IMG/VR virus record: IMGVR_UViG_3300032321_000180
Location: 1 to 46,635 of that record
Direction: 5' to 3' (one strand)
Length of the DNA stretch: 46,635 nt
Origin: a virus
Taxonomy: Duplodnaviria > Caudoviricetes
Shown: in pieces, positions 661 to 39,788 of the stretch
Layout of the letters: the number at the start of each line of letters is the position of its first letter
Position numbering within the stretch: the stretch's first letter is position 1
The notes under the pieces: model-generated
The model's database searches: none
The model's input: only the letters and a program-made list of their open reading frames with translations
Told to the model about the DNA's origin: nothing
Program-made: the position numbers and the translations under genes

Positions 661-1716
661 TCAACAAGCGCGTCCGCCTTTTTTCATTGGCGCAACAGTA
701 ACCGACTCTTTCGACTTGGTTACGCTTTTTGGGTTCACAAAACCACGGCCAGCACCAGCTTCCTTCTTGCCTGCAAACAGGCTGTCCATGAAACTATGCG
801 CCTTCTTTGCAAACCCCATGCCCATCGGAGGCTCATTGAGTGTGTCATCGTAGGCACCTTTTGACAGGTCTACGTCACCACCCTCTTTGAGTTTCATCTT
901 ACTGGCAACCCGGCCACCACGCTTGTAGGTTCCAGCAAGTTCATTGATGGCTACAGGCTTGGAGGCGGGTTTACGGCCTTGTGGCATTGCCACGGCAGAA
1001 CCAGTGCTATTAACACTGCCCCCCGTGGCGAAATGCTTTTTTGTTGCACCTCCACGCTTGAAGCCACCAGCATTACCTAGATTCACGCCACCAGTATTGG
1101 CAGGAGAGTTGTCGTACTTTGCCGTGTCCACAATCGTAGTAGCAGCAGATCCGGAAGTGCCTTCAGATGGGATCATGCCGCCAGTGGCATATCCAGCTTG
1201 GCCTTTCACAACGCCACCAGTAGCCATCTTGACTTTGCCGCCTTTTTTGTAGCCGCCTTGACCATTTACAACACCGCCAGTAGCCATCTTGCCACCCTTT
1301 TTCAAGGCCAGCTTGGTGCCCTTGCCGCCCTTATGCTCTTGCATATCGTGCTGCTTGAACGCCTTCTTGATCATGGCCTTGTCTTGCGACATATCCATTT
1401 TCTCTTCTTTGCGCTGATCGGCTTTTGATTCTGCCTCTCCGCCTTTTTTCATGCGACTTGCTGCCATGCCAATAGGAGCCGCTGGGCCAGAACCCATCAT
1501 CTTCATAGCGCGGCGACGAGCAGCCAACGAAGGAGCCAAGGGGGCAGAAGCACCCATTGGGCCACCACGAGCAGGCATAGAAGGAGGCATAGCAGAGGGA
1601 GGGGCCATGCCCATCATCCCACCGTCAGCCTTCTTCACCATACCGCCTTTTTTGAGCTTCAGTTCAACTGAAGGCTCAGTGGTCTCCATCTTCACCATCG
1701 GTTTAAATTGTCCCAT
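661..1716 (-). CDS. Low-complexity Gly/Lys/Met-rich protein with ~13 phi-[AK]-x-GG motifs; probable internal head protein
   Basis: Start MGQFKPMVK at 1716 after AAGGAG RBS; repeats LKKGG, MATGG, YATGG, FKRGG, MKKGG etc. Confidence 0.75.
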   Translation of the reverse strand: MGQFKPMVKMETTEPSVELKLKKGGMVKKADGGMMGMAPPSAMPPSMPARGGPMGASAPLAPSLAARRRAMKMMGSGPAAPIGMAASRMKKGGEAESKADQRKEEKMDMSQDKAMIKKAFKQHDMQEHKGGKGTKLALKKGGKMATGGVVNGQGGYKKGGKVKMATGGVVKGQAGYATGGMIPSEGTSGSAATTIVDTAKYDNSPANTGGVNLGNAGGFKRGGATKKHFATGGSVNSTGSAVAMPQGRKPASKPVAINELAGTYKRGGRVASKMKLKEGGDVDLSKGAYDDTLNEPPMGMGFAKKAHSFMDSLFAGKKEAGAGRGFVNPKSVTKSKESVTVAPMKKGGRAC

Positions 1717-1726
1717 GTCGTTCTCC

Positions 1727-2704
1727 TTATGCTTGTGTGACGCCGAGAGCGCCAACACGGGTTGCATTTGGGCCTACCGCAATTGCTGGCAGGGCGATTC
1801 CCATTACGAGACGTTTGATACCATCCGCCGCCGATGAGGGCAGATAAGTGCCCCGCACATCACCAGTTGTGGTGGTGGCCGTCAAGGTAGCGGCGGCGGC
1901 AAAAGTGCCCGCATCTTCGGCTAGGGTGTTGTTCCAGCCTGCGCGAGTAACGTACCCAGCATCAGTGATGCGCAGTGGCGCACCCAAGATGTCGGTTGTA
2001 CCCACCGCGACGGTCACCACGCTTGCGCCAGAAGAAGTAACGCTGGCAATTTGGTAGAAGGCTTTCTTGCCACTGACAGTTGTTGATGCCACCGTTCCTG
2101 TTGCAATTACCTCGCTCATGGCTTGACCGTAGTAGTCGTAGCCAGAAACAGTAATGTTGACAGAAGTCGGAGTACCAGCACCTGTGGTTGTAGAAACCGC
2201 ACGAGGGCAGTCAAGTTGCAAGCCTGTTGCGCCGCCTGTAATCGTGGCCGATGTAACACCAGCACCTGCGGCCAGCGTAAGCGTGGTAGCAGTTGTGATG
2301 ACGGCGGCAACAATGTTGGTTGTCAACTTCGCCTGTGGTACAGCATCCCAAACATAAATGCGACCCAGAGGGCCAACACCTACGCTCATTGGGGATGGGT
2401 TTGACAACAAAGCATTACCCGAACCAATGATGGTTGCGCTTGCTACAGTTTGTGAGGCACTTACGGTGTAAGTACCCACGCCGCCAGAACCCGTACCGAA
2501 TGCGGTGATATAGGTTCCATTGGTCAACGAGGTTGAGCTATCAATAAACATACCAACAAAAATTGGGTCACCCGAAAGCATCGCGGTGACGGTCAATGTA
2601 GTGGTAGCAATTGAGCCAGTAAAAGTTGAAACAGCAGGGTAGGCGTCCATACCTTGAACGGTAAGGGCGGAACCCAGAAAGAGATCATCTGAAAATTGAG
2701 GCAT
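1727..2704 (-). CDS. Thr/Ala/Gly-rich virion protein (head decoration/fibre-like)
   Basis: Start MPQFSDD at 2704 with AAGGAG RBS; beta-rich composition; directly after the capsid gene. Confidence 0.7.
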
Positions 2705-3691: not shown

Positions 3692-3702
3692 GATTGGACT
3701 CC

Positions 3703-4275: not shown

Positions 4276-4296
4276 AGAAACTCCTTTGTTAAGTCC

Positions 4297-4839
4297 TCAT
4301 CCGTAAAATACGGGTGTTTGGACGGTTCGGTTCAAATTGCCAAAGCCTTCGCCTTCAACACTTCCCAGACTCTTGCCTGAGCTATCGCGGTTTCCTTGAA
4401 GCTGCTCAATTTGGATTTGGACTTTGTCCGCCTCTTCCATGGGAGCCTCATGGTGCATTTGAATCATGACCTCTTGATAAACGTCCATTGGAAGTTTATA
4501 CAAGCGCATTTCATTGCACGCGACAAAACCTACGTCTTCGCCAGCCTTTACGCGGTAATTTTCGAATCCGGGTAACTCATCCGCTTTCACGGGAACATAC
4601 CCTAATCGCATCCGCTTATCAATACTGTCGTATCCGTTGGTGGTTGATAACCAGCAAAGATGCCATCCCGGAATTTCCGGAACCTTCGGCAGCGCACTTT
4701 GTGTCCATTCATCGCTCCACATCTTGCGACGTTCCTGCGTAGAAATGAACTTCTCTTCGGGAGCGGCGCGGCTTGCATCTTGTGAAGATCTTTGCTCACG
4801 GCCACCAGCGTTGAGGGTTTTTTTAAGACGAGAATCCAT
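4297..4839 (-). CDS. Conserved head-module hypothetical protein
   Basis: 180 aa ORF (P..PGWHLCWLST...R.RLGY.PV) between scaffold and decoration genes. Confidence 0.7.
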   Translation of the reverse strand: MDSRLKKTLNAGGREQRSSQDASRAAPEEKFISTQERRKMWSDEWTQSALPKVPEIPGWHLCWLSTTNGYDSIDKRMRLGYVPVKADELPGFENYRVKAGEDVGFVACNEMRLYKLPMDVYQEVMIQMHHEAPMEEADKVQIQIEQLQGNRDSSGKSLGSVEGEGFGNLNRTVQTPVFYG

Positions 4840-4844
4840 AATGT

Positions 4845-5783: not shown

Positions 5784-6253
5784 ACCAACACCTCCTCAAA
5801 AATGCGCTTGGTTGTTTTTTTGGCTTGCATTGAAATCACCAAGGATTGGGCAATTTTTAACAACTCTTCATCACTCATGGTGCTTTTGAAGGCGTTAACG
5901 CAAACACAAACAAGGCGAACATTCCCCTCAATGTAACCAATTGAATTGTCAATTCGGTCAATTGACATGGATGTGGGAGCAGTTTTACCCGTGGCCCATG
6001 TCATACGAATACCTGATAACGCGCACAATCCTTCTTGAGCGTCATACAAAGACATCAGGTAATCTTGATTGATGGTCACTTCGGCTCTTTTCCGAGCCAT
6101 AGCAAGAGTAGAAGAAAAAGCATACCGTGGGCTTTTCTTATTTCGCTCACGATGTTTCTCAAGCAATTTCTCTTTATTGTCAACTCTCCATTGCTGGAGT
6201 TTTTCTTGGTTTTTTACGTTCCAAGCACGTTGTGTTTCTGGTTTATTTTTCAT
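5780..6253 (-). CDS. HNH/beta-beta-alpha-Me-type endonuclease (probable free-standing homing endonuclease)
   Basis: CALSG...SIDRIDNSIGYIEGNVRLVCVCVN motif, basic N-terminus, AT-richer than neighbours. Confidence 0.75.
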   Translation of the reverse strand: MKNKPETQRAWNVKNQEKLQQWRVDNKEKLLEKHRERNKKSPRYAFSSTLAMARKRAEVTINQDYLMSLYDAQEGLCALSGIRMTWATGKTAPTSMSIDRIDNSIGYIEGNVRLVCVCVNAFKSTMSDEELLKIAQSLVISMQAKKTTKRIFEEVLV

Positions 6254-6690
6254 TAGATAAACGCCTTCATAGCAAGTGGATTACCAGTGATCTTCACAAT
6301 CACCTCGTGATCGTTTAGCACCATGAATAAAGCTGGTTCTTCGTGGTCATCAGCGCCCGGAACAGGCACCTCCCAACGATCTCCGCCCCATTTGGGCACA
6401 CGGATGTAGTCGCCAACCTCAATCCACGACCCTTCGGGCCACGGGAGCATGGTGTCACGGTGTTTGAACGCTAGTGGGCCGATCTCTACGACCTTTGCCA
6501 CCATGTTCTGCCACTTTTCGGTTTCTTTGGTTTCTTCAACCAATATGATTCCCGCGCTAGTTGTCTTCTGCTTTGCACGACGGAGTTGCACCAAGATGCG
6601 TCCGCCAAGGGGTTTTGCGCCGGGGTCTACGCTCGGAAAAGCCCAAGCTACGTCAGCTTCGTTAAAAGCTACCGGGTCATTCATTTTCAT
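6253..6690 (-). CDS. groES: GroES-like co-chaperonin
   Basis: KPLGGRILVQ...TTSAGIILVE..KE (mobile loop)...AKVVEIGP...VGD.I..PKWGG...LND.EV..KI. Confidence 0.85.
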   Translation of the reverse strand: MKMNDPVAFNEADVAWAFPSVDPGAKPLGGRILVQLRRAKQKTTSAGIILVEETKETEKWQNMVAKVVEIGPLAFKHRDTMLPWPEGSWIEVGDYIRVPKWGGDRWEVPVPGADDHEEPALFMVLNDHEVIVKITGNPLAMKAFI

Positions 6691-6862
6691 CTGTTTCTTT
6701 CATTAAGTCGTTAAGGATGTCAAGGGCTTCTTGCAATCCAAAATAATGTCCAACCATGCGTTGATAAGTCTCCCAGTTCGCCGCATTTCCAGCAGCAAGG
6801 GACGCAGCTATTGCTACCTGCTTAGACTTAATCCCGCCGATCAGATCGCCAAGGGTTTTCAT
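6677..6862 (-). CDS. Small hypothetical protein
   Basis: 61 aa, overlaps its neighbours in the head operon. Confidence 0.65.
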   Translation of the reverse strand: MKTLGDLIGGIKSKQVAIAASLAAGNAANWETYQRMVGHYFGLQEALDILNDLMKETDENE

Positions 6863-7005
6863 TTTTTCTTAGCCTGTGATAAGCCTCCTGACTGTTTGGT
6901 TGGTGCAGAACCCTTCATGCTCTGGCCGTCGAGCTTCTCGCCCATAGCCATGCGCTTGTGCTGGGGAACTTGCACACTCTTTTGCTCTTGATCACTGGTT
7001 GCCAT
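6859..7005 (-). CDS. Small hypothetical protein
   Basis: Likely start MATSDQEQ at 7005 with AAGGAG RBS. Confidence 0.55.
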   Translation of the reverse strand: MATSDQEQKSVQVPQHKRMAMGEKLDGQSMKGSAPTKQSGGLSQAKKK

Positions 7006-9526
7006 AAGGTACTCCTTGGGTTTGTACAGCTTGGTTCTGCTCAAAATTGAGCTTTGCCGCATCTCGCGTTAAGCGTGCTGTCTCGATGCGTTGTTTGGTC
7101 TCTTGGTCGCCCTCGGCGATGGCAAGGCGTAGCTGCAAGTCTTCCATGTCCAACTGGCGCTGCTGCTCCAGCTTCCTCATGTCCATATCGACCTTGGCCT
7201 GCAACTCCTTCTCCTTGAGTCCCATCTCCGCTTGGTCGCGCTGGGTGCGGCGCTGCGTCTCGGCCATGCTGGTGTCCAGCAACACCTTGGTGTCTGGTGC
7301 CATTGGGGGCTGGGGCTGGGACTGCTGCAACTGCTGCATCATCTGCTGGATCATTGGCATGACCTTTTGGAAAGCCTCGTCGCTGTCCAATTTAACGTGC
7401 TGCGATACCGCCGAGAACAGCTTGTCGATCTTGGAGGGCTGCTTAGACATCTCATAGTCCTCTGTAGCGCCTTGCATTGACATATCCACATACCCGTTCA
7501 TGCGGTTCAAGTACCACAAGGTCAAGTGCTGCTTGATGTGATCCATTGCTCGTGGCAAGTAGGTAGGCGCAATGGCAGGGTTTCCGCCCAACGCAGGGTT
7601 GGTAGCAAAGTCCAAGATGACTTGTATGTGCGAAAGGTGATCCTGCTCAATGTAGGCGTAAGCAGCTTGGCCCATAGCCATTGCCACGTTCTCGTTGGCA
7701 GCGTCAATCTTGACCGGCGAGGGTGTATCAACCATCAGTTCGTTGATACCGGGCACTTTGATCTGCTTTAGGAAGCGCTCAATGACCACTTTCTTGTTGA
7801 ACAACTCTGGATTCTTGTCCATCATCGCCATCACAGCCTGAGTCTGGGCCATGCGCTGCGTTTCGGAGAAGATGTGAGGGTCAGAGACGGGAATAACGTC
7901 CGTCACACGAGAAAAGTCCTCGCGGGTGACCTCCAGATCCTCTACCACCTCGCCACGGCGCATATCGTCCAAGTACCAGCGGTTGATGCGGCTTAAAACC
8001 TTCAGCACACGGCCCTGAGACTCATGCAAACGGGCATGGATGGCCGAAAACACCGCTGCTCCCTGCTCAATCAGTGCCTGAGTGGTGCCCACAGGTGCGT
8101 TGGCGTTCACATCGGCAATCTTTTCCTCTGCCGTGGTTACCACGCCCTTGGCGGCGTTGGTCAACCAGCCTAAAAGTTCAAATAGGACGGGGCTGGGCGG
8201 GTTAAATGGCATGGGCATAGCCAGTTTGCGCACATCATCTACGCCGGGAGCGCCTTCAATCTCCACCACCTGCGTGACTTCGACCTCTTGCGACTGTCCA
8301 GAGACCTTGCCGCCCTTCAACTTGAGCAGCGTGGCAGCATTGTTGATGTGGGCAGAGTCCAGCAAGGCCCGTAAAGCGCCTGTAAGGGCCGCAGATAGCC
8401 CTCCAATGAGTTGGGGCAGGCCAACGGCATAGGCACCACGCCACGGGATGAATTTGAACTCGATAACCCAGTCCAGCTTGGTCATCGTCTCGTCGCCCTC
8501 TTCCCAATTGCGGTACAAACCGATGACTTCGGACGACAGATCGTCGATCATCAGGATGTAGGGAGCCGATTCGCCGCCAGAGAACTTGTCGTCGTCCAGT
8601 TCCAACCATGTGTAGATGTGATACACGCGGCGTAGGCCGTCTTCGTTGTTGTCAATGGACTTGCCTTCAATCTTGTTGGTCGCCTTTTGTGAGGCGGTCA
8701 TCTCAGGATCCATCGTTGAGCGGGAAAACGGCGTGTCGCGGTACATCCCAGAGGCGATGCGGCGCTTGTAGTCCCAATCGGAAATGTCATCGACCTCGGT
8801 CACGCGCTGTGCGGTGTAGAAGTTGCCCGCTGCGTAAGGCAAAAGCACGTTGTCAATGGGCAGGAACTGGGCGCAGGGGCGCTTTTTCTTCTCGTCGTAC
8901 CACAGCTTGATGTACTGAGAGCCGCCAAGCGGTAGCTGGGTAAGCATCTGCTCTTGCTCGTCGCGGAACTCTTCGATCTGCTCGGTCAACTGCCAGTTCA
9001 TGTACTCCGATTTGCGCTCGGCCACGGCGGTTTTCTCGTCCGTTACGTCACCCAAGATCTTGGTGCGGGTCGGGCCGTCAGGTGGGAACATCTCCTTAAT
9101 GGCGCGGGAGGCAAAGTCAATGCACGCCTCGGCCATCACCGGATGAACGACCTTTGAAGCTCCGTTGAAATTGGCTCCACCGGGGGCATCATTGCCCATG
9201 CCAGTGCGCTTGATGCCCTCTTCGTACTGCTTGTCGCGCTGCTTGCGGGCGTTCTTGTCCTTCTCCACCAACTCGATGTAGCGCAGGGCCAGCGTGTCGA
9301 TGTCCATCGTGTTGAAGTCATCGCTGTCGGCCAAGTTCTCGTAGAAGTCCTCGTCTTCGCGTGGCCCTTTGGTGGTCATGTGAACGACGACAGAGCCGTC
9401 GGGCAACTCTTCTAGCTCAGAGTCATCAAGGCGAGGCATCTCCACCTCTACGCCAGCCTCTTCATCTGGCTGTTCGCCGTCTACGAAACGACCGTACTCT
9501 GGGTCAATGGGGAACTGTGTTGCCAT
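6992..9526 (-). CDS. Portal protein (P22-like, long C-terminal coiled coil)
   Basis: 844 aa; GASKVVHPVMAEACIDF, YMNWQL, GLPQLIGGL...LLDSAHINN, PVGTT.ALIEQG, PVSDP.IFS motifs; Gln-rich tail. Confidence 0.9.
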   Translation of the reverse strand: MATQFPIDPEYGRFVDGEQPDEEAGVEVEMPRLDDSELEELPDGSVVVHMTTKGPREDEDFYENLADSDDFNTMDIDTLALRYIELVEKDKNARKQRDKQYEEGIKRTGMGNDAPGGANFNGASKVVHPVMAEACIDFASRAIKEMFPPDGPTRTKILGDVTDEKTAVAERKSEYMNWQLTEQIEEFRDEQEQMLTQLPLGGSQYIKLWYDEKKKRPCAQFLPIDNVLLPYAAGNFYTAQRVTEVDDISDWDYKRRIASGMYRDTPFSRSTMDPEMTASQKATNKIEGKSIDNNEDGLRRVYHIYTWLELDDDKFSGGESAPYILMIDDLSSEVIGLYRNWEEGDETMTKLDWVIEFKFIPWRGAYAVGLPQLIGGLSAALTGALRALLDSAHINNAATLLKLKGGKVSGQSQEVEVTQVVEIEGAPGVDDVRKLAMPMPFNPPSPVLFELLGWLTNAAKGVVTTAEEKIADVNANAPVGTTQALIEQGAAVFSAIHARLHESQGRVLKVLSRINRWYLDDMRRGEVVEDLEVTREDFSRVTDVIPVSDPHIFSETQRMAQTQAVMAMMDKNPELFNKKVVIERFLKQIKVPGINELMVDTPSPVKIDAANENVAMAMGQAAYAYIEQDHLSHIQVILDFATNPALGGNPAIAPTYLPRAMDHIKQHLTLWYLNRMNGYVDMSMQGATEDYEMSKQPSKIDKLFSAVSQHVKLDSDEAFQKVMPMIQQMMQQLQQSQPQPPMAPDTKVLLDTSMAETQRRTQRDQAEMGLKEKELQAKVDMDMRKLEQQRQLDMEDLQLRLAIAEGDQETKQRIETARLTRDAAKLNFEQNQAVQTQGVPYGNQ

Positions 9527-12500
9527 GTCGTTTTACCTTTTTAGTCTTGCAGTGGATAAGGCCACCTTCGATTGTCACTTCGCCGCCCTCTTTGCGCTGA
9601 AGACCTGTTTGCCTTACATCGGGCATTCCTTCTTTGCGATACCACGGGAGCAAATCACCCTCACCAGTTTCAATTTGGCGCAGCACTTCGGCGCGGACAT
9701 TTGCCGGGTTGGGTTGAATGCCTTTTTTGTTCAGGGTGTAAGCAACTTGCTTCTCCAGCAAATCAAGGGCGTCACCCCGTGGTGAGCGCAGGCCCGTTAA
9801 CTCTCCGCCGCCAAACCATCGGCCAGCTTGCGCCATGCCGCCGGGTATTCCCAGATCCCCTGCAATGCCAAGCAAGCCCTGTTCGCCAGCGTTGTACTCG
9901 GTATTGCCAAATCCGCCCTGCTCATTAAAGTACGGGTGAAACCTGCTGCCTTGCGTTTGGCCTCCAGCCTCATGAACGTCAAGCACCACCGAGTTGGCAA
10001 AGTCGCCAGCCTTTTGTGAACCATATGTTGGGATCTTGTAATTGGTTGGGATGTTGGCCTTGCTCATCTCGCGCAAGTCCTGCCCGCCCTCAATTACTTT
10101 TGCCACGCCTTCACGATGAAGCGGCATCAAAGGCAAGCCAATGCCAAACTTTTCTTTGTACACGGCCATCTCGCGGGCCACGTTCTCTTCGGTCAATGGT
10201 ATGCCTCTAGCGTTCATGTCGCGCATGAATTGCCCTACGGCCATCTCGTTCATTATGGAATTGCGGGCAGACGCTGGCGCAAGCGAGTGAATCCATCTGT
10301 CAAACTTTTCGGCAGGCATACCCGCCTCTAGCACCGCTTGTTTCACAGGGTATAGCGAGGCGTAGAAAGTCTCACCGCCAAGCGGCAGGCCACGCTTAAT
10401 TTGCTTTTCAATGAGGGCGCGATTCTCTTGGTCAGCGTACAACTCATCAACATGAGATGTGCTGGCGCGTGTGGGTATATCCCTTGGAAAAGCAGTCTGC
10501 TCTACGCCGGGGAAGCCTTCAAGCGCGTCCTTGATGGACGAGCGGTCAAATGCTTGCAATTCAGGCGCAGGGGGAGTCCAAGGCTCAGTAGGCTGGTCAA
10601 GGAATTCGTTGGCCTTGCGCTTGCGTTCTGCCACCACCTCGGCGGTGTTTTGCATCTTGTTGACATTGGTCTTTGAGTAAGGCGTTTTTACCAATGGGCC
10701 GTATGTCTTCTCCAGCTCTGGCTTTTGCACACGCTCCCATTCCAGTTTGCTAGTGGCTTGCTTTGTGGCTTTCTTCAGCACATCTTCTTCGCTCAACTTG
10801 GGATTGTCTGCGGCAATCTTTGCTACAAACTTTTCAATCGTTGAGTTAAGCACCTTGGGACTGTACGCCGCCTTCGCAGCCTTTGCCGCAGCCTCAGCAG
10901 CAGCCTTTGCCACATTTGTTATTCCACCACCAGCCATATGCGCTTCAGGCTTGTCGGTGCGTAGTAGATTGTTTAGGGCGTTTCTTAGGCCAACGCTGCC
11001 ACCACTAGCCATGCCTTGTTCTGGTGGCAAAAGACCAAGTTCTTTTTGAAGTTCTATTTCGTACTCTTCTGGGGTAACGTACTTCAAATCGCCTGCACCT
11101 TTGTATGGTTTTAATCCAGTGTTTTGCAAGTCACCAACTCCAGACCATTTGCCACTCTTCACAAAGTCCTGTACGAATGGCAAGTACTCTTCTTTGGGTG
11201 CGCGGTTTTGTTTGCCTTTGATTTGAATAATATCTTCGGGTGGCGCAACAAATCTATCTGGATAAAAATGCTGCATCCACTCTGCCGCCCCGGGTCTTCC
11301 TCCATGAGTTGAAATACCTTCAACCATGTGTTGTTTATAAATTGGCTTAATGTCTTCCGGAATATCAAAAGGCGTATAGGCTCCGGGTTTTGTCTCAACA
11401 GTTACATGAGGCTCACCCTTGGCATCACGCAGGCTGAAGATGCGGCTGCGGCCCGCTGATACATCAGGGCAGTAGCCACCAACGCAGTGGCCCATTGTGT
11501 CGCCTTCGTACTTGAGGGCATCTTCAAGGCGTTTGTCGTGGTTACCGTTAAAAAATGACACCGCCTCATCTGGGGTATCAAACTCCATACGAGACAAAGG
11601 TTGCCCATTTTTATCAATAACTTGATAGCTTTGGTTTACTTCATTTTGCGCAACCTTGTAACCACTAGGCAAATCTTTTGGCGCAGTTAACTCAATCCAC
11701 TTGTAGCCCTCTGGATACTCCTTGTGGACAGGCATACCCTCGGTGACCTTGGCCTGCGTCTCGCGCATCTTCTTTGCCATCTCTTGGTCGTACTCATAGG
11801 TGCGGCGTACTGCCTGCTCCATGCTTACCTTGCTCAGTTGTTCAGGGCGGATGCGGCCTTCAGCTACGTCTTGCTTGAGGACATCAATGATGTGGTCAAA
11901 ACCAAGGTCTCGTGCGTCAAAATTGGAGCCAGCCATATGCAATTTGGTATTTGGGTCAGCCTTGTCCATCCAAGACTCATACATATGAGCGCCGGGGCCG
12001 TTAGAGTCTTTTACTTTTTTTATTGTTCGAACACTAACAGGTTGAATTACGGCATCCGAACGGTTTTCCCACTGCTGGGCAAGATCAGACTTAGACATCA
12101 GATTGCCGCCAGCTTCTTTTCTAGACGACTCACCCTTAATCGCCCAATACGTTGGGTCTTCAGCAATCGGGAAGTGAGTTATGCCCTCCTCAGCCAACTT
12201 GCGTACTGGGTCGTCAGGCGTAGCCATCTGCTTCTTGACGTAGTTGGTCAAGTTGCTGTCAACCCACTTGTTGATGGCATTGTTAACAGGGTCGGCCATA
12301 CGCTCATTGGTGAACGCATCTCCCATCAAACGCCGTGCGGCTTCCTCATTAACGACGCCGCGCTTCAATGGTTTCAACGCCTGCTCCACGTTGCCGCCAA
12401 GCCAGTTGCCGCCAGTCTCTTTAATTACGTTCAAGCCACCCATTGGCTGGTCAGCAAACTTCATGCGGCCAGCGGCAGGCACCAACTCCTCCGCAGCGCG

Positions 12501-15500
12501 TGCGGCCTTTGCCGCCTTGCCTATCTTGGACAACAATCCACCACCGGCCATGCGCGGCTCTACTTTTGTTGGCTCAAACATGATGCCCATCGGCTTGGTG
12601 GCGTTTGGGTTAATCATGCCCTCGTAACCGTACTCTTTGACCAAACGCTCGTAGTCGTTGGCCTCTTGCATGGGGTAAGTGACGCCTGCGTTAACCCGTG
12701 CGGTAAATGGCGTGCGGTTGGCCTCGCGGGCCAGCAACCTAAAGTCCAGCGGATCTTGGGTAATGTCGTACAGGCTTGACGACTCTCCACGGTAACGGTT
12801 GCCACCAAGGCCAGCTTCGGGCGCAACAGTACCCGGCTCACCGAGGTAGAAGTACGAGCGGTCGCGCACGCCACCCTCAAGGTCACGCAGGCGTCCGGCT
12901 TCCGCACCCTTGATGCCTGTGCCGTACCTTGTGGGGTCTATCAATTGCAGGTTGGGTTCGTTGCTGTAGTGGGTCAGTACCGATCCGGTCTCGGTTCCCT
13001 TAGTTGGCAGGTTTGCAGCTTTCAGGTACGAAGGCATTCCGCCAGCGAACTGGGGATTCATAAACTCAGGCGGCAGCAGCACGGCCCTGTTAGGAGCAAA
13101 CTCCAACCCGGAGTAGGCTTGACGCTTGAGGTCTTCAATTTCTTTTACAAGCGCTTTGTCGCCACGCCTGCGGGCTTCGTAACTCATGCCCTCATACTCG
13201 GCAATAGTTTTCTTGAGCTTGGCATTGAGTGGGCTGTAGTTGACCACTGAGTTCTGTCCACGGGTCTCAGCAGTCATCGCCATACGCGCAAGGGGCGAGT
13301 ACATTTGCTGGTGAACGGCCCATGCCATCTCTTCACCCTTGGGGCCAAACTCGTTGCCGTAAATGGCGTGGCCCAACAGGTCATGGACAGCGCGAAACTT
13401 CTCGTTCTCGTTCAAGCCAGTTTGCGGATCTACGTTGTGCAAGAAGTCGTGCTTGTCGCCACCCTGATAAACGTACAGGTGCCTGTTCCCATGCACATCA
13501 GCGGCCATGTCCTTGGCCCCGTTGTAATTGCCCTCACCAGCGCGGTGGTACGAGAAGTTGTACGGCAGTTTCTTAAACTGATCATCAGTCTCCTTTGCCA
13601 TCTGACGGTAAGCCTTCTCCATCAGGTCGTCGTAGTTTTTTGCGCCAATCTGCTCCATCAGGTCAGGCATCTCACGACTGTAAGCTCCAAAGATTGCAGA
13701 CTTGTACTCAGGCGATCCTTGGACAGCCAGATCAAAAGTACGAGCAATGCCTGACTGCTTTGCCAACGAACTACTTGGAGTTTTTGGCACACCGAAGTCA
13801 ACCCCTTGGATATCTTGCGTGTATTTCTTTGCAATATTCAGTGGTTGATTTGCAACTGGGTCAGCAATTATTCGACCCACTTCCTCTGGCGATAAGAGTT
13901 GCGGAACTTTGCGTCCAGTTGGTTCTGCTCCTCCTGCGACAGCGGGGGTGGCTCGTAACCCATCCGCTTCTTTAGTTCCGCGAGTTGTTGCTGCGTCTTT
14001 GCCAAGTGTTGTTGGCTGGACTCGGAAGAATGGGCCTTCTTGTTGTGTTGCATATTTGGTTCCTGCTGTTTTAATTTCCTTTGCCGCCTTTGCTTCCTTA
14101 CCTGCCAGCAAGGCATCCTTGACGCCCTTAACACCCTTAACGCCAGCTTTGGCTACACCATAGCCAGCAGCACCCAAACCAATCGTATCCAGCACATCCA
14201 TTGGGTTAGGTGCATAGCCCTTGCCGACGCTGCCTAGCAGGTTGCTTGCGCCAGTGCCGCCAGTCAGGTCGGACATCTTCATGGCGTCCAAGATGTCGGT
14301 CGTGGGCACCTTGGCCGTGTTGACGCCAGTAGCCACCCGTGGGTTCGTGGCCGAGCGCTGGAACTCGTAGGGGATCGTGAGGGTGGAGTCTTCCATGCCC
14401 TTGCGTAGATCTGGGCCAACAAACGGCACGGCACCCACCAAGTTGCCCACCACGCTGCCAACTGATGGGCCGCTGTCAATTAGGCGGTTGAGCTTGTCCA
14501 GCCCCGACTTGACCGCCTTAACGCCAAGGTTCATGCGCTCGGTCTTGGGGTAAGGCTTGTTCTCGTTGTCCTGACGAGTAGCGCCCATGAGCGAGTAGTT
14601 GCTGTCCGCCCTGCCGCCACCAGCAAGGTGGATCAAGCCACCTTGGGCCTTGTCCTGCTCCTTTGCCAGTAAGTCAGGCGCAGCCACGCCCATAACCGCC
14701 GCAGTGGCCGCAGTCTTTCGGAATGGGTCAAAAGCGGCAAATCGGGAACGGATTGTCTCTGGGTTGAACACGGCAATCGTTGGGAAGTTGTCATCGGTTG
14801 ACTCGCGCAGCCGCATGGAGTCGTAACCCTTGCTCTTCAGGAAGTCAACCACGGGCTGGTTTTCGTACACCAAGTAGTTTCCGTGTTGAAAGTGCTTAAC
14901 AATCTCTTGCGGAGTATTGTTCTTGGCAAAGTATTCGGCCATGACATCCATGTCGGTCTCAGGGTTGAACGTATTGTTCGCCTCAACCTTCATTGGATAA
15001 ACCGCGCTGTGTGTTCGATCTGGGTCTAAGCCAGACTCTCTTGCAAAGGCTTCCTTGAACGCATTGTTCCTTTTGTCGTACTCTGCATGAAAGTTAGGGT
15101 CGTCTCGGTCAAGCGACTCAAAATCCATGTACTTGTGTTTAAGGGCGCGGTATAAATCTTCGGCAGACTTTTGCTCTGCTTCAGCGCCAATACGCTTTTG
15201 CATCTTGCCCTTGCCAACCCATTTGCTGGCGAAATCTGGGTCTTTTGTTACAAATGCCAAGTCGTCGTTGTAACCCGGAACAAACGCACCTTTGATGTCC
15301 TGTTTGGTTCCGTGGTATGCGTCTGTATTGATGCCCATCGCCGCAGCCCGCTGCTCTGGCGTGTTGCTGGCAGCAAGGCCAAGGCCACCCTTTGCTGGAG
15401 GCAGGGCGGCTCGTTGTTGGGCTAGGCGCAGGGCTTCTGCCTGTGGTGCCTCCTCAACAACCCTAGTCACCGCCTTGGCGGCAGGCTTGGCAGCTTTGAC

Positions 15501-16280
15501 CACAGCCTTCAGCAACCCACCACCAGCTTTGTTCAGGTCTGGCACAGTGGTGTCATAGGTGCCTTGGTTGCCTATCGCGCTCTTAACCGTGTTGGGGTCA
15601 AACGCTACCACCTCACTCAACTCGCCATTGCGGTACTGGGCCAAGCCGTCGTAGCCAGCAGCACGGGCGCGGGATTCAACCTCCTTGCCAATGTAGCCCT
15701 TTTGGTCGTAGGCACGCTCGACCATGCGGGACGCCTTGTCCTCGTCCATGCCCAGCTTGATCAACGCCTCAATCATGGGGTCGCCATGGGTTCCCTCAAT
15801 GAAGAGCGGGTTCTTAATCTGGGCGTGGACTGGCAACATATTGCCGCCCTGTTGCGATGGCAGTACGTTGCCAGAGTTGCGCTGGTTCAACGCCTTCAGC
15901 CCGAAGTCTTGATGGCGCGGGTCGCTCAACATCATCTCAAGCGCCTCGTCGTTGGGAATGCCGCTGTAGCCGCTTGCATGGGCGGAGCTAGGGGTAAGGT
16001 ACACCCCAGAGCCTAGAGCGCCTTCCTTGCTGGGCTTGATACGGCTGATGGCCTCTTGGCCCTTGCCACCTTCGGTTGCGGTTGTGCCGTGGTACAGGCG
16101 CATGGGCGTCTTGCTCTCAGCAAGAAACTTGGCGAGGTTGGCCTCGCGTTCCACGGTTGGCAATACTTTTTGCGCAGCCTTAGCCACAGACTTCAACAGT
16201 CCACCACCAGCCATATTGGCATCGCCAGACAGAAGCTGGTCAAGCTGCGCTCGGCGGATGTCGGTCAGTCGTTGGTTCAT
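9504..16280 (-). CDS. Giant polyvalent multi-enzyme protein (three ADP-ribosyltransferase-like domains, HDxxGH zincin-like, PcfJ-like, glycosylase-like)
   Basis: Likely start MNQRLTD at 16280 (AAGGAAG RBS); YHGT..GYDG..E.VAF.P..KSAIGN.GTYD; second YHGT..GYDS; RAVHDLLGH..ETRGQNS; EGDTMGHCVGGY..IFSLRD..G.PHVTVE..QIKGKQN. Confidence 0.8.
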   Translation of the reverse strand: MNQRLTDIRRAQLDQLLSGDANMAGGGLLKSVAKAAQKVLPTVEREANLAKFLAESKTPMRLYHGTTATEGGKGQEAISRIKPSKEGALGSGVYLTPSSAHASGYSGIPNDEALEMMLSDPRHQDFGLKALNQRNSGNVLPSQQGGNMLPVHAQIKNPLFIEGTHGDPMIEALIKLGMDEDKASRMVERAYDQKGYIGKEVESRARAAGYDGLAQYRNGELSEVVAFDPNTVKSAIGNQGTYDTTVPDLNKAGGGLLKAVVKAAKPAAKAVTRVVEEAPQAEALRLAQQRAALPPAKGGLGLAASNTPEQRAAAMGINTDAYHGTKQDIKGAFVPGYNDDLAFVTKDPDFASKWVGKGKMQKRIGAEAEQKSAEDLYRALKHKYMDFESLDRDDPNFHAEYDKRNNAFKEAFARESGLDPDRTHSAVYPMKVEANNTFNPETDMDVMAEYFAKNNTPQEIVKHFQHGNYLVYENQPVVDFLKSKGYDSMRLRESTDDNFPTIAVFNPETIRSRFAAFDPFRKTAATAAVMGVAAPDLLAKEQDKAQGGLIHLAGGGRADSNYSLMGATRQDNENKPYPKTERMNLGVKAVKSGLDKLNRLIDSGPSVGSVVGNLVGAVPFVGPDLRKGMEDSTLTIPYEFQRSATNPRVATGVNTAKVPTTDILDAMKMSDLTGGTGASNLLGSVGKGYAPNPMDVLDTIGLGAAGYGVAKAGVKGVKGVKDALLAGKEAKAAKEIKTAGTKYATQQEGPFFRVQPTTLGKDAATTRGTKEADGLRATPAVAGGAEPTGRKVPQLLSPEEVGRIIADPVANQPLNIAKKYTQDIQGVDFGVPKTPSSSLAKQSGIARTFDLAVQGSPEYKSAIFGAYSREMPDLMEQIGAKNYDDLMEKAYRQMAKETDDQFKKLPYNFSYHRAGEGNYNGAKDMAADVHGNRHLYVYQGGDKHDFLHNVDPQTGLNENEKFRAVHDLLGHAIYGNEFGPKGEEMAWAVHQQMYSPLARMAMTAETRGQNSVVNYSPLNAKLKKTIAEYEGMSYEARRRGDKALVKEIEDLKRQAYSGLEFAPNRAVLLPPEFMNPQFAGGMPSYLKAANLPTKGTETGSVLTHYSNEPNLQLIDPTRYGTGIKGAEAGRLRDLEGGVRDRSYFYLGEPGTVAPEAGLGGNRYRGESSSLYDITQDPLDFRLLAREANRTPFTARVNAGVTYPMQEANDYERLVKEYGYEGMINPNATKPMGIMFEPTKVEPRMAGGGLLSKIGKAAKAARAAEELVPAAGRMKFADQPMGGLNVIKETGGNWLGGNVEQALKPLKRGVVNEEAARRLMGDAFTNERMADPVNNAINKWVDSNLTNYVKKQMATPDDPVRKLAEEGITHFPIAEDPTYWAIKGESSRKEAGGNLMSKSDLAQQWENRSDAVIQPVSVRTIKKVKDSNGPGAHMYESWMDKADPNTKLHMAGSNFDARDLGFDHIIDVLKQDVAEGRIRPEQLSKVSMEQAVRRTYEYDQEMAKKMRETQAKVTEGMPVHKEYPEGYKWIELTAPKDLPSGYKVAQNEVNQSYQVIDKNGQPLSRMEFDTPDEAVSFFNGNHDKRLEDALKYEGDTMGHCVGGYCPDVSAGRSRIFSLRDAKGEPHVTVETKPGAYTPFDIPEDIKPIYKQHMVEGISTHGGRPGAAEWMQHFYPDRFVAPPEDIIQIKGKQNRAPKEEYLPFVQDFVKSGKWSGVGDLQNTGLKPYKGAGDLKYVTPEEYEIELQKELGLLPPEQGMASGGSVGLRNALNNLLRTDKPEAHMAGGGITNVAKAAAEAAAKAAKAAYSPKVLNSTIEKFVAKIAADNPKLSEEDVLKKATKQATSKLEWERVQKPELEKTYGPLVKTPYSKTNVNKMQNTAEVVAERKRKANEFLDQPTEPWTPPAPELQAFDRSSIKDALEGFPGVEQTAFPRDIPTRASTSHVDELYADQENRALIEKQIKRGLPLGGETFYASLYPVKQAVLEAGMPAEKFDRWIHSLAPASARNSIMNEMAVGQFMRDMNARGIPLTEENVAREMAVYKEKFGIGLPLMPLHREGVAKVIEGGQDLREMSKANIPTNYKIPTYGSQKAGDFANSVVLDVHEAGGQTQGSRFHPYFNEQGGFGNTEYNAGEQGLLGIAGDLGIPGGMAQAGRWFGGGELTGLRSPRGDALDLLEKQVAYTLNKKGIQPNPANVRAEVLRQIETGEGDLLPWYRKEGMPDVRQTGLQRKEGGEVTIEGGLIHCKTKKVKRHGNTVPH

Positions 16281-16665
16281 GGCGGCTTCCTTATACCCCC
16301 GCATTTAACCACAGGTTGTGAGGGAATTGTCTCTACCCGCTTGCAGGCTCGGCACACCCACCGCTCTCGGCCTGTGGTCAGTGGGTAGGTCTCTATCACT
16401 CCACCGCATTTGCATAACCTCATAACTGCCCTTTGGTGAATGTTGGAGCAAAGCGCAGCCTATACCGTGAAAAATCACAGACACCGCTACGCTTTGATGT
16501 ATGCCCTTCGGAGCCATGCCATCGCTTACGCTGGACAGACTTGCAGGCTTTCGCCCTACCACCGCGCTCTATCCTTAGCCCACGCTCCCTGATCTGGTTT
16601 GCTCGTGTATCAGGGTATCCCATGCCCAGCCATCGACGTACCGCACTGGGCCGTCCAAAAGCAAA

Positions 16666-16781
16666 AACCCCGCAAGATGCTCTGTGGTCTTGGCTCTTGG
16701 CGAGAGCAACAGCAAGACGATTGACGCGAATCAAAAATCTCGCCTGCTGTCTGACAAGACCACACAGTACCTTACGGGGTT
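16666..16781 (-). ncRNA. C4-antisense-like structured RNA / attenuator hairpin
   Basis: Long closing stem (AACCCCGUAAGGU/AUCUUGCGGGGUU, UGUGGUCUUG/CAAGACCACA) enclosing two hairpins, one with a CGCCAA loop; followed by a U-tract. Confidence 0.6.
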
Positions 16782-16823
16782 CAAGATTCGCGTTTTCGCC
16801 CAGATGCCACTCCAGACGGGTGC

Positions 16824-16829
16824 ATTGTA
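16824..16829 (-). promoter_or_regulatory. Putative -10 element (TACAAT) driving the ncRNA block
   Basis: TACAAT about 20 nt after the terL stop, just before a leader hairpin; no convincing -35. Confidence 0.45.
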
Positions 16830-16849
16830 CACCATTCGGAACCATTGGC

Positions 16850-34883: not shown

Positions 34884-37800
34884 CTAGCTTCGCTTGAGAA
34901 AATCAAGCGGGGATTTGATCTGCGGCGGCAAATCCTTGGGTTTAGCAGAACGGACATGGGCGCGAATGCCGTGCATCATGTCGTATAGTTTATCGCTTCC
35001 CGCCTTGGTTGAGCCATTTCCTACCGCTGCAACAACATCGGCGGGGAAAACAAACTCCCCGTCAGCCAGCATGGCGGGAATATCGTCCGACTGGCCGTCT
35101 CCAGCCCCCGTTACGGCGTCCCCGTGGCGGAAGTCCACCCGCATCTTGCCTCCAGAGGCCATCAAAGGGGTGCTTAGACCGCCTTGGGCGTACTTCCCGT
35201 GGCGAGTACCAGCCCTGCCGCCTTTGGCGTAGGTGCCTGTTTTGAGGTTCTCCGATGCCGATGGGTAGGCGGTGGAGGCGTCCGTAGCTTGGCCCGCCTG
35301 CCCGGCTTGGCCCGCGCCCATATTGAGGATGTCCTCAATGGATCGCTGAGTTCCATACGAGTATGAGGGGTCGTTCATTGCGTTTCCTTGTGCTGGTAAT
35401 CCAGTGCTTGCTGAGGTTGGCTGAATTCCATATTCATTTTCAAATCCAAACGATTGCTCCTGAAGACTCAAAAACTTTGCCAACGGGCTTTCAAACTGGT
35501 TGGGGTTTTGCTTTGCTCCAAGGTAAACAGAAGAAAGCGGCGATTTTTTCTTAGCCTCATCCGTTGTAGGTATAAGCTGCTGGTCTTGGGCGACTGGACG
35601 CAACAAAGACAAAGCACCCTGTGCCGCGCCTTTTTGCAGCGCAGCATTTGAAGCCTTTGCGGCAGCAGTGTTCTTGGCAATAGTTTCAAGCTCTTTTTGA
35701 AGCACTGATTGCTGGTCATATCCGGCTGTATTTGCTGCTACTGATGGATTTATTTCCTGCGTTGCAATCCTAATAGCATCAGCCGGGTCTGCGCCCAAAC
35801 TAACCAACTCATCAACACGAGAATTTAACGCTGCGTTCGGATTTACGTTAACGTTTGGATTTGCATTAGTGTTTGCATTAGGGTTTGCATTGGGATTAGC
35901 GTTCGGATTAGCGTTAGGGTTTGCATTGGGATTTGCATTTACATCCGGGTTTACATTTGGATTTACATTAGGGTTGATGTTTAAGCTAACGCTTGGATTG
36001 ACGTTAGGGTTTACATTTGGATTGATGTTTGCATTTGCGTTTGGATTAACGTTTGGATTTGCATTAGGGTTTGAATTTGGGTTTACATTTGGGTTGGCAT
36101 TAGGGTTTGCGTTAGGATTTGCATTGACATTAGGATTGGCGTTCGGATTTGGATTTGCATTTGGATTTGCATTTGTGTCAACATTTCCATTTGTTTGCTG
36201 TGCAGCAGTAACCCTCGCTTGTGCCGCTTGCAAAGCATCATTTGAAGCCTTGATGTCGGCTTCCGCTTTTACCCTTGCCACCTCTTTTTGTTGCGCGGCT
36301 TCTTTTAGCGCAGCTAATTGACTTGCGGCTTCTCTTGCCTTTGATTCATTCGCGGTCTTTGCCGCCAAATCTTGTTCCGATTTAAGCTGAAGGCCAGCAA
36401 AACTTTGTGCGGCTTTTTCAGCCTCAGCTTTGGTGTCTTGCGCTGCTTTTACTTTTGCTGCGGCCTCTTCCTTTGCTTTCCTCTCGGCTTCCAAAACAGA
36501 AAATATCTCAAGCTGCGAGTTTATTTTTTCAACCCTAGTTTCCGCGCTGAAGTATTTTGAGTACGTCTCTTTTTTTGTTTCCTCTATTTCAGTTAAATGC
36601 TGTTGAGCGGCTGCGGCCTCTTGTGCCGCTTTGTCAGAAATTTCCTTGTTTGATTGGTAAAGTTGTTTCGCCTCTGGCAACGCTTGTTGGTTGGCTTCAA
36701 CGCTCTGGCTTATTTCTTTAAACTGGTTTACAGCCTCTTGAGCGCTTTGATATGCTTTGTAAGAGTTGTCGTAATCGGAAATAACTTTTTGCGCTGAAGA
36801 CAGTACGGTTTTATTGCTTTCGCTTGCTTTGGTAAACGCAACAGGCGCTGCAACAGTTTCAATAATTTGTTGCTCAACCTTTGAAGAGGTCTGTTGTGAA
36901 ACCTGACCAGAATGCACCGCTCCAGTAATTGTTCCGCTTGCAATAATTGCTTGTACAGCAGCAGATCCTATGTCTTTATCCCAAGCCTGACCGTTCACCA
37001 TGTTGGTCGCAATTTTCCCGGATACTTCTTCAGCAACCTCGGCACTAAGCTCACCCTTCAATGCGGATTTAAGGCTTTCCTTAACAATGGTTTGCTGTGC
37101 AATTTTTTGTTCGTTAGAAAGCGCTCCGGGTATAAACTTGTTGGCGATTGCAGATGTAGCTGTTGCAATTGAACCAGCAATACGGCCACGCCTTAACGCC
37201 TCTTCTGGAGTCTCGCCAAGAGCGATGGCTTGGTCATAAGCATTTTGAGCTATGTCGGCACCTTGAGTTACCGCATTGGCGGTAATGGCGGCAACCTCGG
37301 CCACTTTCATTCCAGCACCAAGGGCACGAGCAGCAACCATTGCGCCGCTTCCAGTAAGCAGTGTGACCCCGTTTTCAGCAATGAACGCTGCGGTTTGAAC
37401 TGGATTGACGCCAAACTGCTTAAAGGTCTCCACCACTTGAGAGAAGGTGCCCTCATCCCCAGCTTTGGAGATGGCTTGATTCATCAACGCCTGATCAGAC
37501 TTAAAGCTGGTTGACCGTAAATTGTCAATGCTTGCTTGTATTTCTTTGGATGTTTTAAGAAACGCATTGTCTGGGCCAGCCAATCCCGTCATCAGTCCAA
37601 TCGAGCCAACTTGTCCAAGCAAGTTTGCGCCGCCTGCTGGGATGCCTACTCCAATGTCAATTGAAGTCTGAACAGCCCTTCCAATGGCGTCATTAAACTT
37701 TTGAAAACTGGCTGGCATTGTTCCATCTGAAGTTCCACCAACAGGCAAACCTGTGAGCGGGTCATACACAACATCCTCATTGGCAGAAGTTGTTCCAGTT

Positions 37801-39788
37801 GTTTTTGCTGGCGTTTGACTTGCTGGAGTTTGAGTGACTACCGCCTTAAATGCGGCATCATCCGCTGCACTAAATCCATCCATTGCGCCACGGCCAGAGC
37901 CTGCGGCATCAGAAGCCGCAATTTTGTTCATCCGTATTTCATCTGACTTGGCCGCAAGAGCAGGGTCTTCAACACGAGTGTTGGTGCTAAAGCTGTTCCC
38001 ATTCCAAGTAAAAGTCTTTCCAGCGCCATAGCCAGCACGAGCCGCTGCGTAAGCCTCGTCAAAGGTCTTGGCGGTGTTAATGGCCGTCTCAACTACTTGA
38101 TTGCGCTCACCGGCAGTCATTGGATTGGAGACGGTGAATACAGCCTCACCCGGCTTTACTTGCGGTATCTCTTTCTGATTTGCAATGCTAACCTTTTCGC
38201 CTTCGCTTATGTTAGAGCCTTCTGCTTTTGCAGCATCAATTTGAGCTTGAGTTAGGGCTGTAGAGGTGTCTTGCGTTGTTGCGGCAGGCGTTGTTTCTTG
38301 AGTCGTTACAACTGGCGTAGCGGTAGAAGACGGCAAAACAACTGAAGTTGCGTCTTGATTTGCCGCAGAAGGAGTAACAACCGGCGTAATATCTATAGCA
38401 GGAGTTGTTGGGGCGGGGGTAGATACAACATCTACGCTGGCCGCAGGGTGATCAACCTTGTACTGCTCTTCAATAGCCTTTACATAATCAGGCGTGTCTG
38501 ATTTAATAATCTTTGATAACTCTTCAGGCGATGCATCTTTTCCGTACAATTCTTTGTATTTGTCATTTGCTGCTTGAAAGTTTTGCAGCTTATTCGCAAT
38601 CAACTCAGTGTTCGCGGCCTCAACTTCATTGAAGCTCTTAACCGCCTCATCAAACGATGGCTGAACATCATCTTTAAGTTGGGCGGTCAAAGTCGCGTAA
38701 TCAGATTGAGCGGCTTTGAAATTTTCATTCAAGCTGTCTATCTGCGGCTTTGCTGTTGCATAGCTATTGTTGAAAGAATCAATTGCAGTGTTAGCCGCCG
38801 CAGCGTCTTTGTTGATTGTTAAAACAAGAGAGGATTTTGTTACTTCTCCTCCGGTTTTGGGGTCAACGTAATAAGTAACAGTGCTATATCCGCCACCTCT
38901 TCCTGTGTTCTTAACACGTTTTGTTTTTTTGGTGTATACATATGTAAAGTTATCGTATTTGTATTTGTCTTTGTTGTACTTGTCAATTGCAGCTTGAGCG
39001 GCATCCTGCTCATCTTGCAATGGATCAATAAGGTCGTTGTAATCTTCAGCAATTGTTTGCTGCTTTGTTATGCTTGAGTTGATGCTGTCTTGCAAAGAAG
39101 TAATTTTTGACGCAGCATTTTTTAAAGCAGTTCCAGCGTCAGAAATTGTTTCTTTGATGCTTGGCCCAGCAACTTGAAGGAATGAGTCTATCAATGAGCT
39201 TTGCAACGCCTTACTTGGATCGTTTCCAAGCAAAGATGCGGCAATAACACTTTTTGTGGCACGAGCAAAAGCCGCCCCAGATTCGGAAGACGACAGACTG
39301 TCAAATCCGGGTATGCCTCCGGTAAATTTATCTACCGCCAAATTGACGCTACTGCTCAATCCGGCAGTCAACCCGCCTTTAAGCATCGCATCAATAGGAT
39401 TTTTTCCTTGAAGCAGCGCTGAAGTTCCGCTAGAAATTGCTCCAGATGTCGCCGTTGCAATCACTTGCGACATTGCGTTTGCTGTGGTTTGACTTACCCC
39501 GCTTGAGATTAAATTTGTAGCTACGCTTTTTGAAACTGTTTGGGAAATATTCTGTCCGATAGTGCCACCAACATACGAAGTGACCCCACCCAATATTGCG
39601 TTTTTAAGAATGTCCTCTGGCTTATCACCCTTCAATGCGGAAAAAGTAGCGCCAATGGTTGCTGCGCCAATTGCCGTTGCAGCCGTAGCGCTTACGGCAG
39701 TAACACCAACAAACGAAGCAATAGCAGTACCAATTTCTGCGGCAAAAAGGTAAGTAGCCGCCGCTGGAGTAATAATGAAAAATGCCAT
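34884..39788 (-). CDS. Large ejection/internal virion protein (1634 aa) with NANP/NVNP repeat tract and C-terminal Ax[19 protein letters not shown] domain
   Basis: Hydrophobic N-terminus, coiled coils, repeat tract, conserved C-terminal domain. Confidence 0.7.
35835..36175 (-). repeat. (N-[A/V/I/S/P])n tract, mostly NANP/NVNP units, ~110 aa
   Basis: Seen in the translation; synonymous codons vary between units. Confidence 0.9.

Follow-up and report, generated by a model that had tools for sequence, protein, structure and literature searches.

A recurrent five-residue peptide at the module joints of a phage polyvalent protein and its possible role as a cleavage site

The 46,635-base tailed-phage contig IMGVR_UViG_3300032321_000180 (the whole of which is called the window here) encodes, between the genes for the terminase large subunit (terL) and the portal, a giant protein in which modules are joined at copies of a short peptide, X-[AK]-x-G-G. 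This protein, termed the cassette in the following, is a phage-type polyvalent protein. In the cassettes of related phages the peptide motif stands at the borders of modules that are gained, lost and re-ordered, and the same motif is shared with a basic low-complexity protein and with a hook element at the end of a likely ejection protein. On balance we lean towards a reading in which the polyvalent chain would be loaded into the prohead and cut at X|[AK]xGG, thereby freeing modules that are led by a basic helix and would be ejected as separate effectors.

Results

The cassette carries eight copies of the motif

The cassette's open reading frame (ORF) comprises 2,266 amino acids (aa), or 2,258 aa if the ATG at 16280 is taken as its start; terL (16850-18268) and portal (6992-9526) flank it, in agreement with a first-pass annotation of the same DNA. 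Eight motifs of the form [MFYKRH(L)]-[AK]-x-G-G were found (aa 31, 259, 552, 560, 1252, 1765, 1790 and 2237; nucleotides 16214, 15530, 14651, 14627, 12551, 11012, 10937 and 9596), and all those that the annotation had listed are at their places. The strict pattern, [MFYKRH][AK]xGG, was fixed before the tape measure protein (TMP) pb2 of phage T5 was examined. It occurs seven times in the cassette, compared with a mean of 0.96 in shuffled sequences, and seven copies were reached in 0 of 10,000 shuffles. Four basic helices follow motifs in the cassette, as had been described.

9504..16304, minus strand: giant cassette (polyvalent) protein, ORF of 2,266 aa
16850..18268, minus strand: terL, 472 aa, upstream anchor of the cassette
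6992..9526, minus strand: portal protein (phrog_1216), downstream anchor, overlapping the cassette stop
16200..16214, minus strand: motif 1, MAGGG (aa 31), then basic helix
15516..15530, minus strand: motif 2, KAGGG (aa 259), then basic helix
14613..14651, minus strand: motifs 3 and 4 in tandem, KAQGG (aa 552) and LAGGG (aa 560), with a period of 8, the usual tandem form in the family
12537..12551, minus strand: motif 5, MAGGG (aa 1252), then basic helix
10923..11012, minus strand: motifs 6 and 7, MASGG (aa 1765) and MAGGG (aa 1790), then basic helix
9582..9596, minus strand: motif 8, RKEGG (aa 2237), C-terminal tail motif

The annotation had placed the motifs at the boundaries between blocks. 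This holds for the joints between modules but not for the last copy, RKEGG, which is a C-terminal tail motif and no joint. In the closest relative (L001, 97% in the portal), a frame change interrupts the cassette (3517-9566) within the PcfJ module and away from a motif, which may be an assembly error.

The motif is a module joint throughout the family

A search with the portal gave 460 related loci, and the 80 best of them were used for the analysis. A motif-bearing ORF was present in the terL-portal interval of all 64 loci having both genes, and the longest ORF ranged from 295 to 2,451 aa. The 92 distinct interval ORFs contained 284 motifs, while shuffled sequences gave 33.9 (maximum 48 in 200 shuffles). 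Motif density per 1,000 aa was 3.4 in the cassettes compared with 0.19 in the portal proteins of the same loci, and zero motifs were found in their terL, capsid and GroES proteins.

When the cassettes were cut at the motifs and pieces of at least 90 aa were kept as module segments, 202 segments were obtained, which fell into 32 families and 27 singletons. Ordered junctions between these modules are of 57 types, and both orders were found for five family pairs; modules 3 and 5 of the window (listed below) stand in reversed order in two relatives (L076 and L078).

To locate exchange points independently of the motif, motifs were masked before BLAST, internal homology breakpoints were recorded and 2,000 circular shifts were used as null. 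At an identity of at least 55%, 79 of 198 breakpoints were located within 25 aa of a motif (null mean 25.4, maximum 45), and at least 70% identity gave 55 of 110 (null 15.2, maximum 31), with the reservation that the counts include related proteins and are hence non-independent. The coincidence of module gain and loss with the motif among homologues at the terL-portal locus is thus well above the null, and the proposal that the motif provides standard joints for module exchange is borne out by the clustering of these breakpoints.

Sequence features of the joint

Across 291 family instances, the first motif residue was Met in 38%, Lys in 23%, Tyr in 14%, Phe in 11% and Arg in 6%, and the second was Ala (66%) or Lys (29%). 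The third position is free, with Gly in only 17%, and is followed by Gly-Gly, often then by Glu/Ala-Val and by a second copy 8 aa further on. The 20 aa behind the last motif of a joint had a net charge of +1.75 compared with -0.02 in the background (n = 114 and 1,216, respectively) and a hydrophobic moment above that of the background. The near-identical helix noted behind GGG in the window is only partly general: its form LLKxxxKA was seen in just 20 of the 114 post-motif segments and is a lineage feature, whereas a basic amphipathic leader is common to the family.

A terminal motif within the last 45 aa, followed by a short tail, is present in 45 of 72 motif-bearing cargo ORFs. At the other end, seven ORFs were inspected and none of the six having a gene start carries an N-terminal motif; five of these six gene-start modules open, as judged by eye, with Met and an Ala/Lys-rich stretch. 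The missing N-terminal motif fits the idea that the motif's job is the making of a free N-terminus.

Modules of the cassette

The cassette of the window contains two or more unrelated effector-type domains: ART-PolyVal twice, PcfJ and two further families.

15528..16211, minus strand: module 1, ART-PolyVal ADP-ribosyltransferase (family F4), 228 aa; PF18760, E 5.6e-14
14649..15527, minus strand: module 2, divergent ART-like (family F14), 293 aa; PF18760, E 5.6e-4, under the curated cut-off; F4 profile, E 1.5e-10
12549..14624, minus strand: module 3 (family F2), 692 aa; HDxxGH zincin-like part and unannotated C-terminal part; phrog_3170
11010..12548, minus strand: module 4 (family F1), 513 aa; PcfJ-like stretch, PF14284, E 5e-8
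9594..10934, minus strand: module 5 (family F3, distantly F9), 447 aa; DUF7178-like

Among the block labels given in the first-pass annotation, the first ART and PcfJ were recovered, the PcfJ match spanning only 46 aa of module 4, and the second ART was recovered weakly, by the Pfam value above and by the F4 profile, which was built from the ART modules of relatives. The labels zincin, ART-like tail and glycosylase were not; here only conserved strings and a likeness to DUF7178 were obtained. In module 3 the HDxxGH string is kept in 16 of 16 family members and phrog_3170 is a PHROG of unknown function, but no peptidase family of Pfam was matched, and the C-terminal part matched neither Pfam nor the ART profile. 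For module 5, the nearest named Atlas clusters carry DUF7178, and its profile had no match in the PDB.

A Pfam scan of 69 representative segments left most of them without a match. Those that matched include ART-PolyVal, LPD23, DUF6782/M78 metallopeptidase, DUF7178, ASCH and GDSL, and family F11 matches metallopeptidase families. The domain set of the cassettes is that of the polyvalent-protein pool described in PMC5512222.

The motif in a basic protein and ahead of a hook element

Two further proteins of the window carry the motif, which had been overlooked in the first-pass annotation.

661..1767, minus strand: basic low-complexity protein, 368 aa, with the motif in 13 copies; second gene behind that of the major capsid protein
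34884..39788, minus strand: likely ejection protein, 1,634 aa, tape-measure-like, with a C-terminal hook
34884..35231, minus strand: three motifs (aa 1520, 1533 and 1543) and the hook element of about 90 aa (G.G.G.SD.I.A.L..GE[FY]V), end of the 1,634-aa protein

In every one of 32 distinct relatives the basic protein contains 7-12 strict copies. Small basic ORFs with two or three copies also lie just beyond the position of the window's end in relatives (L003 19074-19583, L034 12556-12852 and L046 18953-19258).

The hook element has 12,619 relatives at 50% clustering. It is acidic and has an invariant Asp and an invariant Glu, although one of the search patterns itself required DGE. Weak matches to many annotated tape measures were obtained (179 records at E of at most 1), and the hook profile matched the TMP of PDB 8ZDO (E 1.3e-15) and that of phage JBD30 (8RK3; E 6.3e-5), in which the hook-like elements are each preceded by F/Y-A-x-G-G. 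The element has no Pfam family. Its fold model (pLDDT 64, pTM 0.46) reached a best Z of 2.8 in a PDB-wide comparison and had no match at E of at most 0.001 in a viral library. The likely ejection proteins next to the hook protein are nearly motif-free (one motif in 71 proteins and two in 54). A single motif stands before the hook in Caulobacter phage RW and in HTVC023P, neither of which has a cassette. We infer that the motif was originally a leader of the hook itself and was later multiplied onto other proteins in the clade.

Homologues of the 1,634-aa protein range from about 500 to 3,000 aa, with a near-invariant hook at the C-terminus, and the window protein itself contains an approximately 105-aa tract of Asn-Pro-Asn-Ala/Val repeats (about 35830-36160, minus strand). 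In HMO-2011 (L279 11959-14247), a 763-aa protein encoded directly behind the portal has the hook at its N-terminus, with Gly-Gly strings leading the element.

The same string in proteins of known phages

In T5, the cut of pb2 was mapped after R1127 by intact-mass mass spectrometry (PMC10038345). The sequence there, R1127|AEGG, matches the strict pattern, which occurs at just one other place in the 1,219 aa of pb2, and the cut leaves a 92-aa fragment. At the ends of T5-type TMPs, the R, A, G and G as well as two downstream Glu residues are invariant in 8 of 8 aligned sequences, down to 23% identity; pb2 itself has a GExGxE element with two Glu.

A second case is the cargo protein gp45 of crAss001, of which a portal-bound domain (residues 425-552) and a tail-bound helix (residues 214-245) were located 420 Å apart (PMC10172136). 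Residue 425 is the Ala of N|AFGG, and 559 is the position of the motif that follows. The tail-bound helix falls between the sites at 206 and 260, in another motif-bounded piece. In total, gp45 has four strict X-[AK]-x-GG sites, or seven if any first residue is allowed. None of the peptides named in the text of PMC10172136 (79-101, 181-190, 275-300 and 307-320) spans a site, and cleavage of gp45 is not mentioned in the main text or the text-readable supplement. For gp45, an Atlas score of 0.80 is a lead only. Around gp45 (L197 21988-24516), relatives (L247, L250 and L252) have gained or lost whole segments between X-[AK]-x-GG sites in a cassette-like manner.

For lambda gpH, a cut at FATGG (733) would give computed fragments of 79.6 and 12.7 kDa. 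The published fragments are approximately 78 and 14 kDa, with site and catalyst stated to be unknown (PMC12617516). In JBD30 the hook of TMP gp46 was predicted by the authors at residues 1022-1066 (PMC11445458), and the available text of PMC1796659 and PMC10713586 contains no mapped cut site. Together, the evidence from T5, crAss001 gp45 and lambda gpH favours the register X|A-x-G-G over GG|X. The suggestion that the motif is a cleavage site thus gains outside support from R|AEGG of T5 and residue 425 of crAss001, with the cut placed ahead of the Ala and not at GG|G or G|GG as had been proposed.

Candidates for the cutting activity

Matches of the capsid protein to protease-capsid fusion PHROGs cover C-terminal parts only. 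A highly conserved 180-aa gene (4297-4839, minus strand) lies between the scaffold-like and capsid genes. Close to the N-terminus of its product, L-x-x-G-G-R is invariant (16 of 16 close relatives) and resembles a variant motif. A role of this gene as the protease is unsupported: the 16 close relatives all keep His60, Cys62 and Cys108, but the distant relatives HTVC023P and CRP-901 have lost them, and the model, unusable at pLDDT 45, had no fold match. The most economical candidate would be the conserved acidic hook element with its invariant Asp and Glu, acting in trans inside the particle; tape measures and the 1,634-aa protein have hook and motif together in cis. A host protease may be an alternative.

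Gene order and relatives of the window

Thirty-two ORFs were annotated in the window. They encode terminase subunits, portal, GroES, endonuclease, major capsid protein and an SU10-type adaptor, and further tail proteins, a holin, an M15 endolysin, an SLT protein and a protein with a weak DNA-ejection-protein match. None of the 32 ORFs matched a tape measure, and the window phage is therefore probably short-tailed (a podophage). Several kb are probably missing from the window, since contigs of relatives in IMG/VR reach 53-58 kb.

The closest cultured portals are those of the Caulobacter phages RW, KcrB, RLK and GB2A (45%), followed by Roseobacter CRP-901/902 and Pelagibacter HTVC023P/027P (at most 35%). 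RW, HTVC023P and CRP-901 have no large terL-portal ORF and no motif-rich protein, and they were rejected as cultured models for the cassette. Among the papers listed in the literature search, none gave a virion proteome for a relative. In GTDB, the nearest matches of the hook element are in bins labelled Limnohabitans and Burkholderiaceae (83-86%), which is weak evidence on the host.

Between terL and the cassette, approximately 545 nt (16305-16849) hold no convincing gene. The phage GroES gene (6253-6690, minus strand) directly follows the portal gene in every examined relative reaching that far. TerL has 748-1,048 aa in several relatives (L006 2233-4479, L024 1525-4044 and L032 1458-4604) compared with 472 aa in the window, which suggests inteins or other insertions.

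Discussion

From these sequences we infer virion loading of the cassette, its cleavage with the register given above and a role of the basic helix as a handle. The cassette chain would be packed into the phage head and cut just ahead of the Ala or Lys at each joint, as at the maturation site of the T5 tape measure, so that one gene would yield about five effectors of 24, 32, 75, 57 and 49 kDa. Each piece would be led by a basic amphipathic helix serving as loading or ejection handle, and the pieces would be ejected separately.

A number of observations weigh against this reading. The window phage is uncultured, and cleavage, virion location and activity of its cassette are predicted. Within the family, 119 of the 198 breakpoints lie more than 25 aa from a motif, inside modules, and one stand-alone module ORF (in L011) has no motif anywhere. 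No protease was found among the 32 ORFs of the window, which is however shorter than the 53-58 kb contigs of its relatives, and the Gly-Glu element that follows in cis in tape measures is not found behind the eight cassette motifs, being confined in the window to the 1,634-aa protein. The comparison with T5 has its own weaknesses. On the cargo matrix the T5 cut site scores 3.2 bits, second to a site at 138 that was not reported to be cut. The T5-type element does not align with the hook profile of the window (hhalign E 0.54), and the link between T5 and the window phage is therefore a five-residue pattern. Searches for intermediates between the two elements gave only near-identical T5-like or lambda-like sequences, and one alignment made for bridging them yielded no usable pattern. 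In crAss001, the site at 425 has Asn at P1 and is outside the strict class, ordered domains tend to start at linkers anyway, crAss C1 does not align with the hook profile (E 0.45), and the authors describe gp45 as one intact chain threaded through the portal (PMC10172136). Lambda matched the hook profile weakly (E 0.0014, probability 17%), and its gpH was estimated to be cut near residue 710 (PMC12617516). In JBD30 the authors guess a cut after the hook (1066) and not ahead of it (PMC11445458).

Some of the same data would also be explained if the motif were not cut but were a docking tag, with its copies binding a reader (hook, portal or capsid wall) so that the whole chain is loaded multivalently and ejected intact. 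The 13 copies in the basic head-module protein, the tandem copies 8 aa apart and the binding of the motif-led gp45 domain to the portal wing are in line with such a tag, as is the C-terminal copy in 45 of the 72 cargo ORFs, where a cut would release only a short tail. We nevertheless regard docking as unlikely. Modules at gene starts have no N-terminal motif, one ORF has no motif at all, and no strict motif was found in gp46, gp47, gp49 and gp50, which are other cargo proteins of crAss001. The stand-alone modules and these four proteins also weaken the earlier suggestion of a capsid-loading tag. Moreover, the sole experimentally mapped instance of the string, that of T5, is a cut.

It is rather improbable that motif and helix are only a flexible linker spread by duplication, acting as recombination joint and folding spacer. 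The clustering of breakpoints at motifs would be expected of such a linker, and among four motif copies of the window 26 of 47 identical residues share their codon, which exceeds the expectation of roughly 0.23-0.56, depending on the residue type. The motif is, however, also present in non-modular proteins and in tape measures, and it is too short, and its DNA too variable, for a recombination site. An explanation by the Chi octamer of E. coli, which occurs eight times on the coding strand, four of them inside cassette motifs, was rejected: the octamer is no more frequent in Ala-Gly-Gly of motifs (28 of 101) than in other Ala-Gly-Gly (44 of 155; p = 1). Because the synonymous codons of the motif vary and Chi is not enriched, the constraint is on the peptide.

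Processing by the cassette's own zincin-like module would follow the general proposal of Iyer et al. that metallopeptidase domains process polyvalent proteins into functional units (PMC5512222), and the conserved HDxxGH of module 3 and the metallopeptidase matches of F11 agree with it. We consider it improbable to a still greater degree. F2 or F11 is present in only 21 of 69 motif-bearing cassettes of at least 400 aa, although unannotated modules could hide peptidases; both families are themselves swapped like cargo; and HDxxGH deviates from HExxH. The adenain consensus is (M/I/L)xGG|X, and the invariant Gly-Gly and the MAGG|G copies fit it. That an adenain/Ulp1-like phage protease cuts behind Gly-Gly, in the adenovirus-like register first proposed, is nevertheless highly improbable, since x is Gly in just 17% of the 291 motifs, the 32 ORFs (in a window shorter than its relatives' contigs) gave no match to such a protease and T5 is cut three residues ahead of the glycines.

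Cleavage at X|[AK]xGG can be compared with several known systems. Phage-type polyvalent proteins are, like the cassette, multi-effector chains of portal-terminase phages encoded near virion genes, and they share ART-PolyVal with the window and LPD23, metallopeptidase and ASCH with its relatives. Their processing by a zincin domain has already been proposed (Iyer et al., 2017), and DarA and DdrB of P1 are processed and packaged (PMC5512222). The cassettes differ in that a single peptide, which recurs in other late proteins, forms their joints and in that the two recognised peptidase-like modules are missing from most of them. In the available text of PMC5512222 no joint motif is described, and the words 'linker' and 'glycine' have 0 occurrences.

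T5 pb2 has the same string at its cut, and a cut at FATGG of lambda gpH matches the published masses approximately; these are single sites in siphophage tail proteins, compared with eight in a podophage cargo protein. Like the cassette, gp45 of crAss001 (PF25725) is cargo punctuated by X-[AK]-x-GG with segments gained and lost, and an ordered domain of it begins at the motif Ala; unlike the cassette, it has no enzyme modules and was published as an intact threaded chain. The hook of JBD30 TMP gp46 and the two copies in the 8ZDO TMP are homologues of the element with which the 1,634-aa protein ends. The JBD30 hook was proposed as an anchor with a cut behind it and was not linked to cargo proteins. 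T4 has the prohead protease gp21 and a capsid-targeting sequence. In prohead-protease maturation of ejection proteins, as in SPN3US (gp245, AXE|; PMC10052503) and T4, one short motif is likewise common to many internal proteins and often repeated, but there a known, dedicated protease takes off N-terminal propeptides and the motif stands ahead of the cut.

In the literature search, which covered few subscription papers, no paper listed described the motif itself. What distinguishes the cassette among polyvalent proteins is that its joints are one defined peptide that is shared with other late proteins and matches a known tape-measure cut. The present analysis itself tested the masked-breakpoint statistic, the replacement of the motif by the start codon at gene starts and the exact agreement of residue 425 of crAss with the register of T5. 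Going further, we would raise, with considerable doubt, the possibility that X|[AK]xGG is one maturation signal across tailed phages: the tape-measure cut of T5 and lambda, the split of crAss gp45 into tail and head pieces, and, multiplied in an abundant aquatic podophage clade, the joint of a plug-and-play polyprotein that would be read in trans by the hook with no dedicated protease.

The motif would supply a rule, readable from sequence, for the places at which polyvalent phage proteins separate, and would thereby define their real units, 32 module families of which most are without a Pfam match and which are candidates for injected host-takeover or anti-defence enzymes. For lambda gpH, of which site and catalyst were stated to be unknown, it predicts a cut at F733|A734, and for crAss001 gp45 a cut at N424|A425 instead of intact threading through the portal. 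If motif and helix suffice to process and load a passenger, they would constitute a portable joint for protein delivery.

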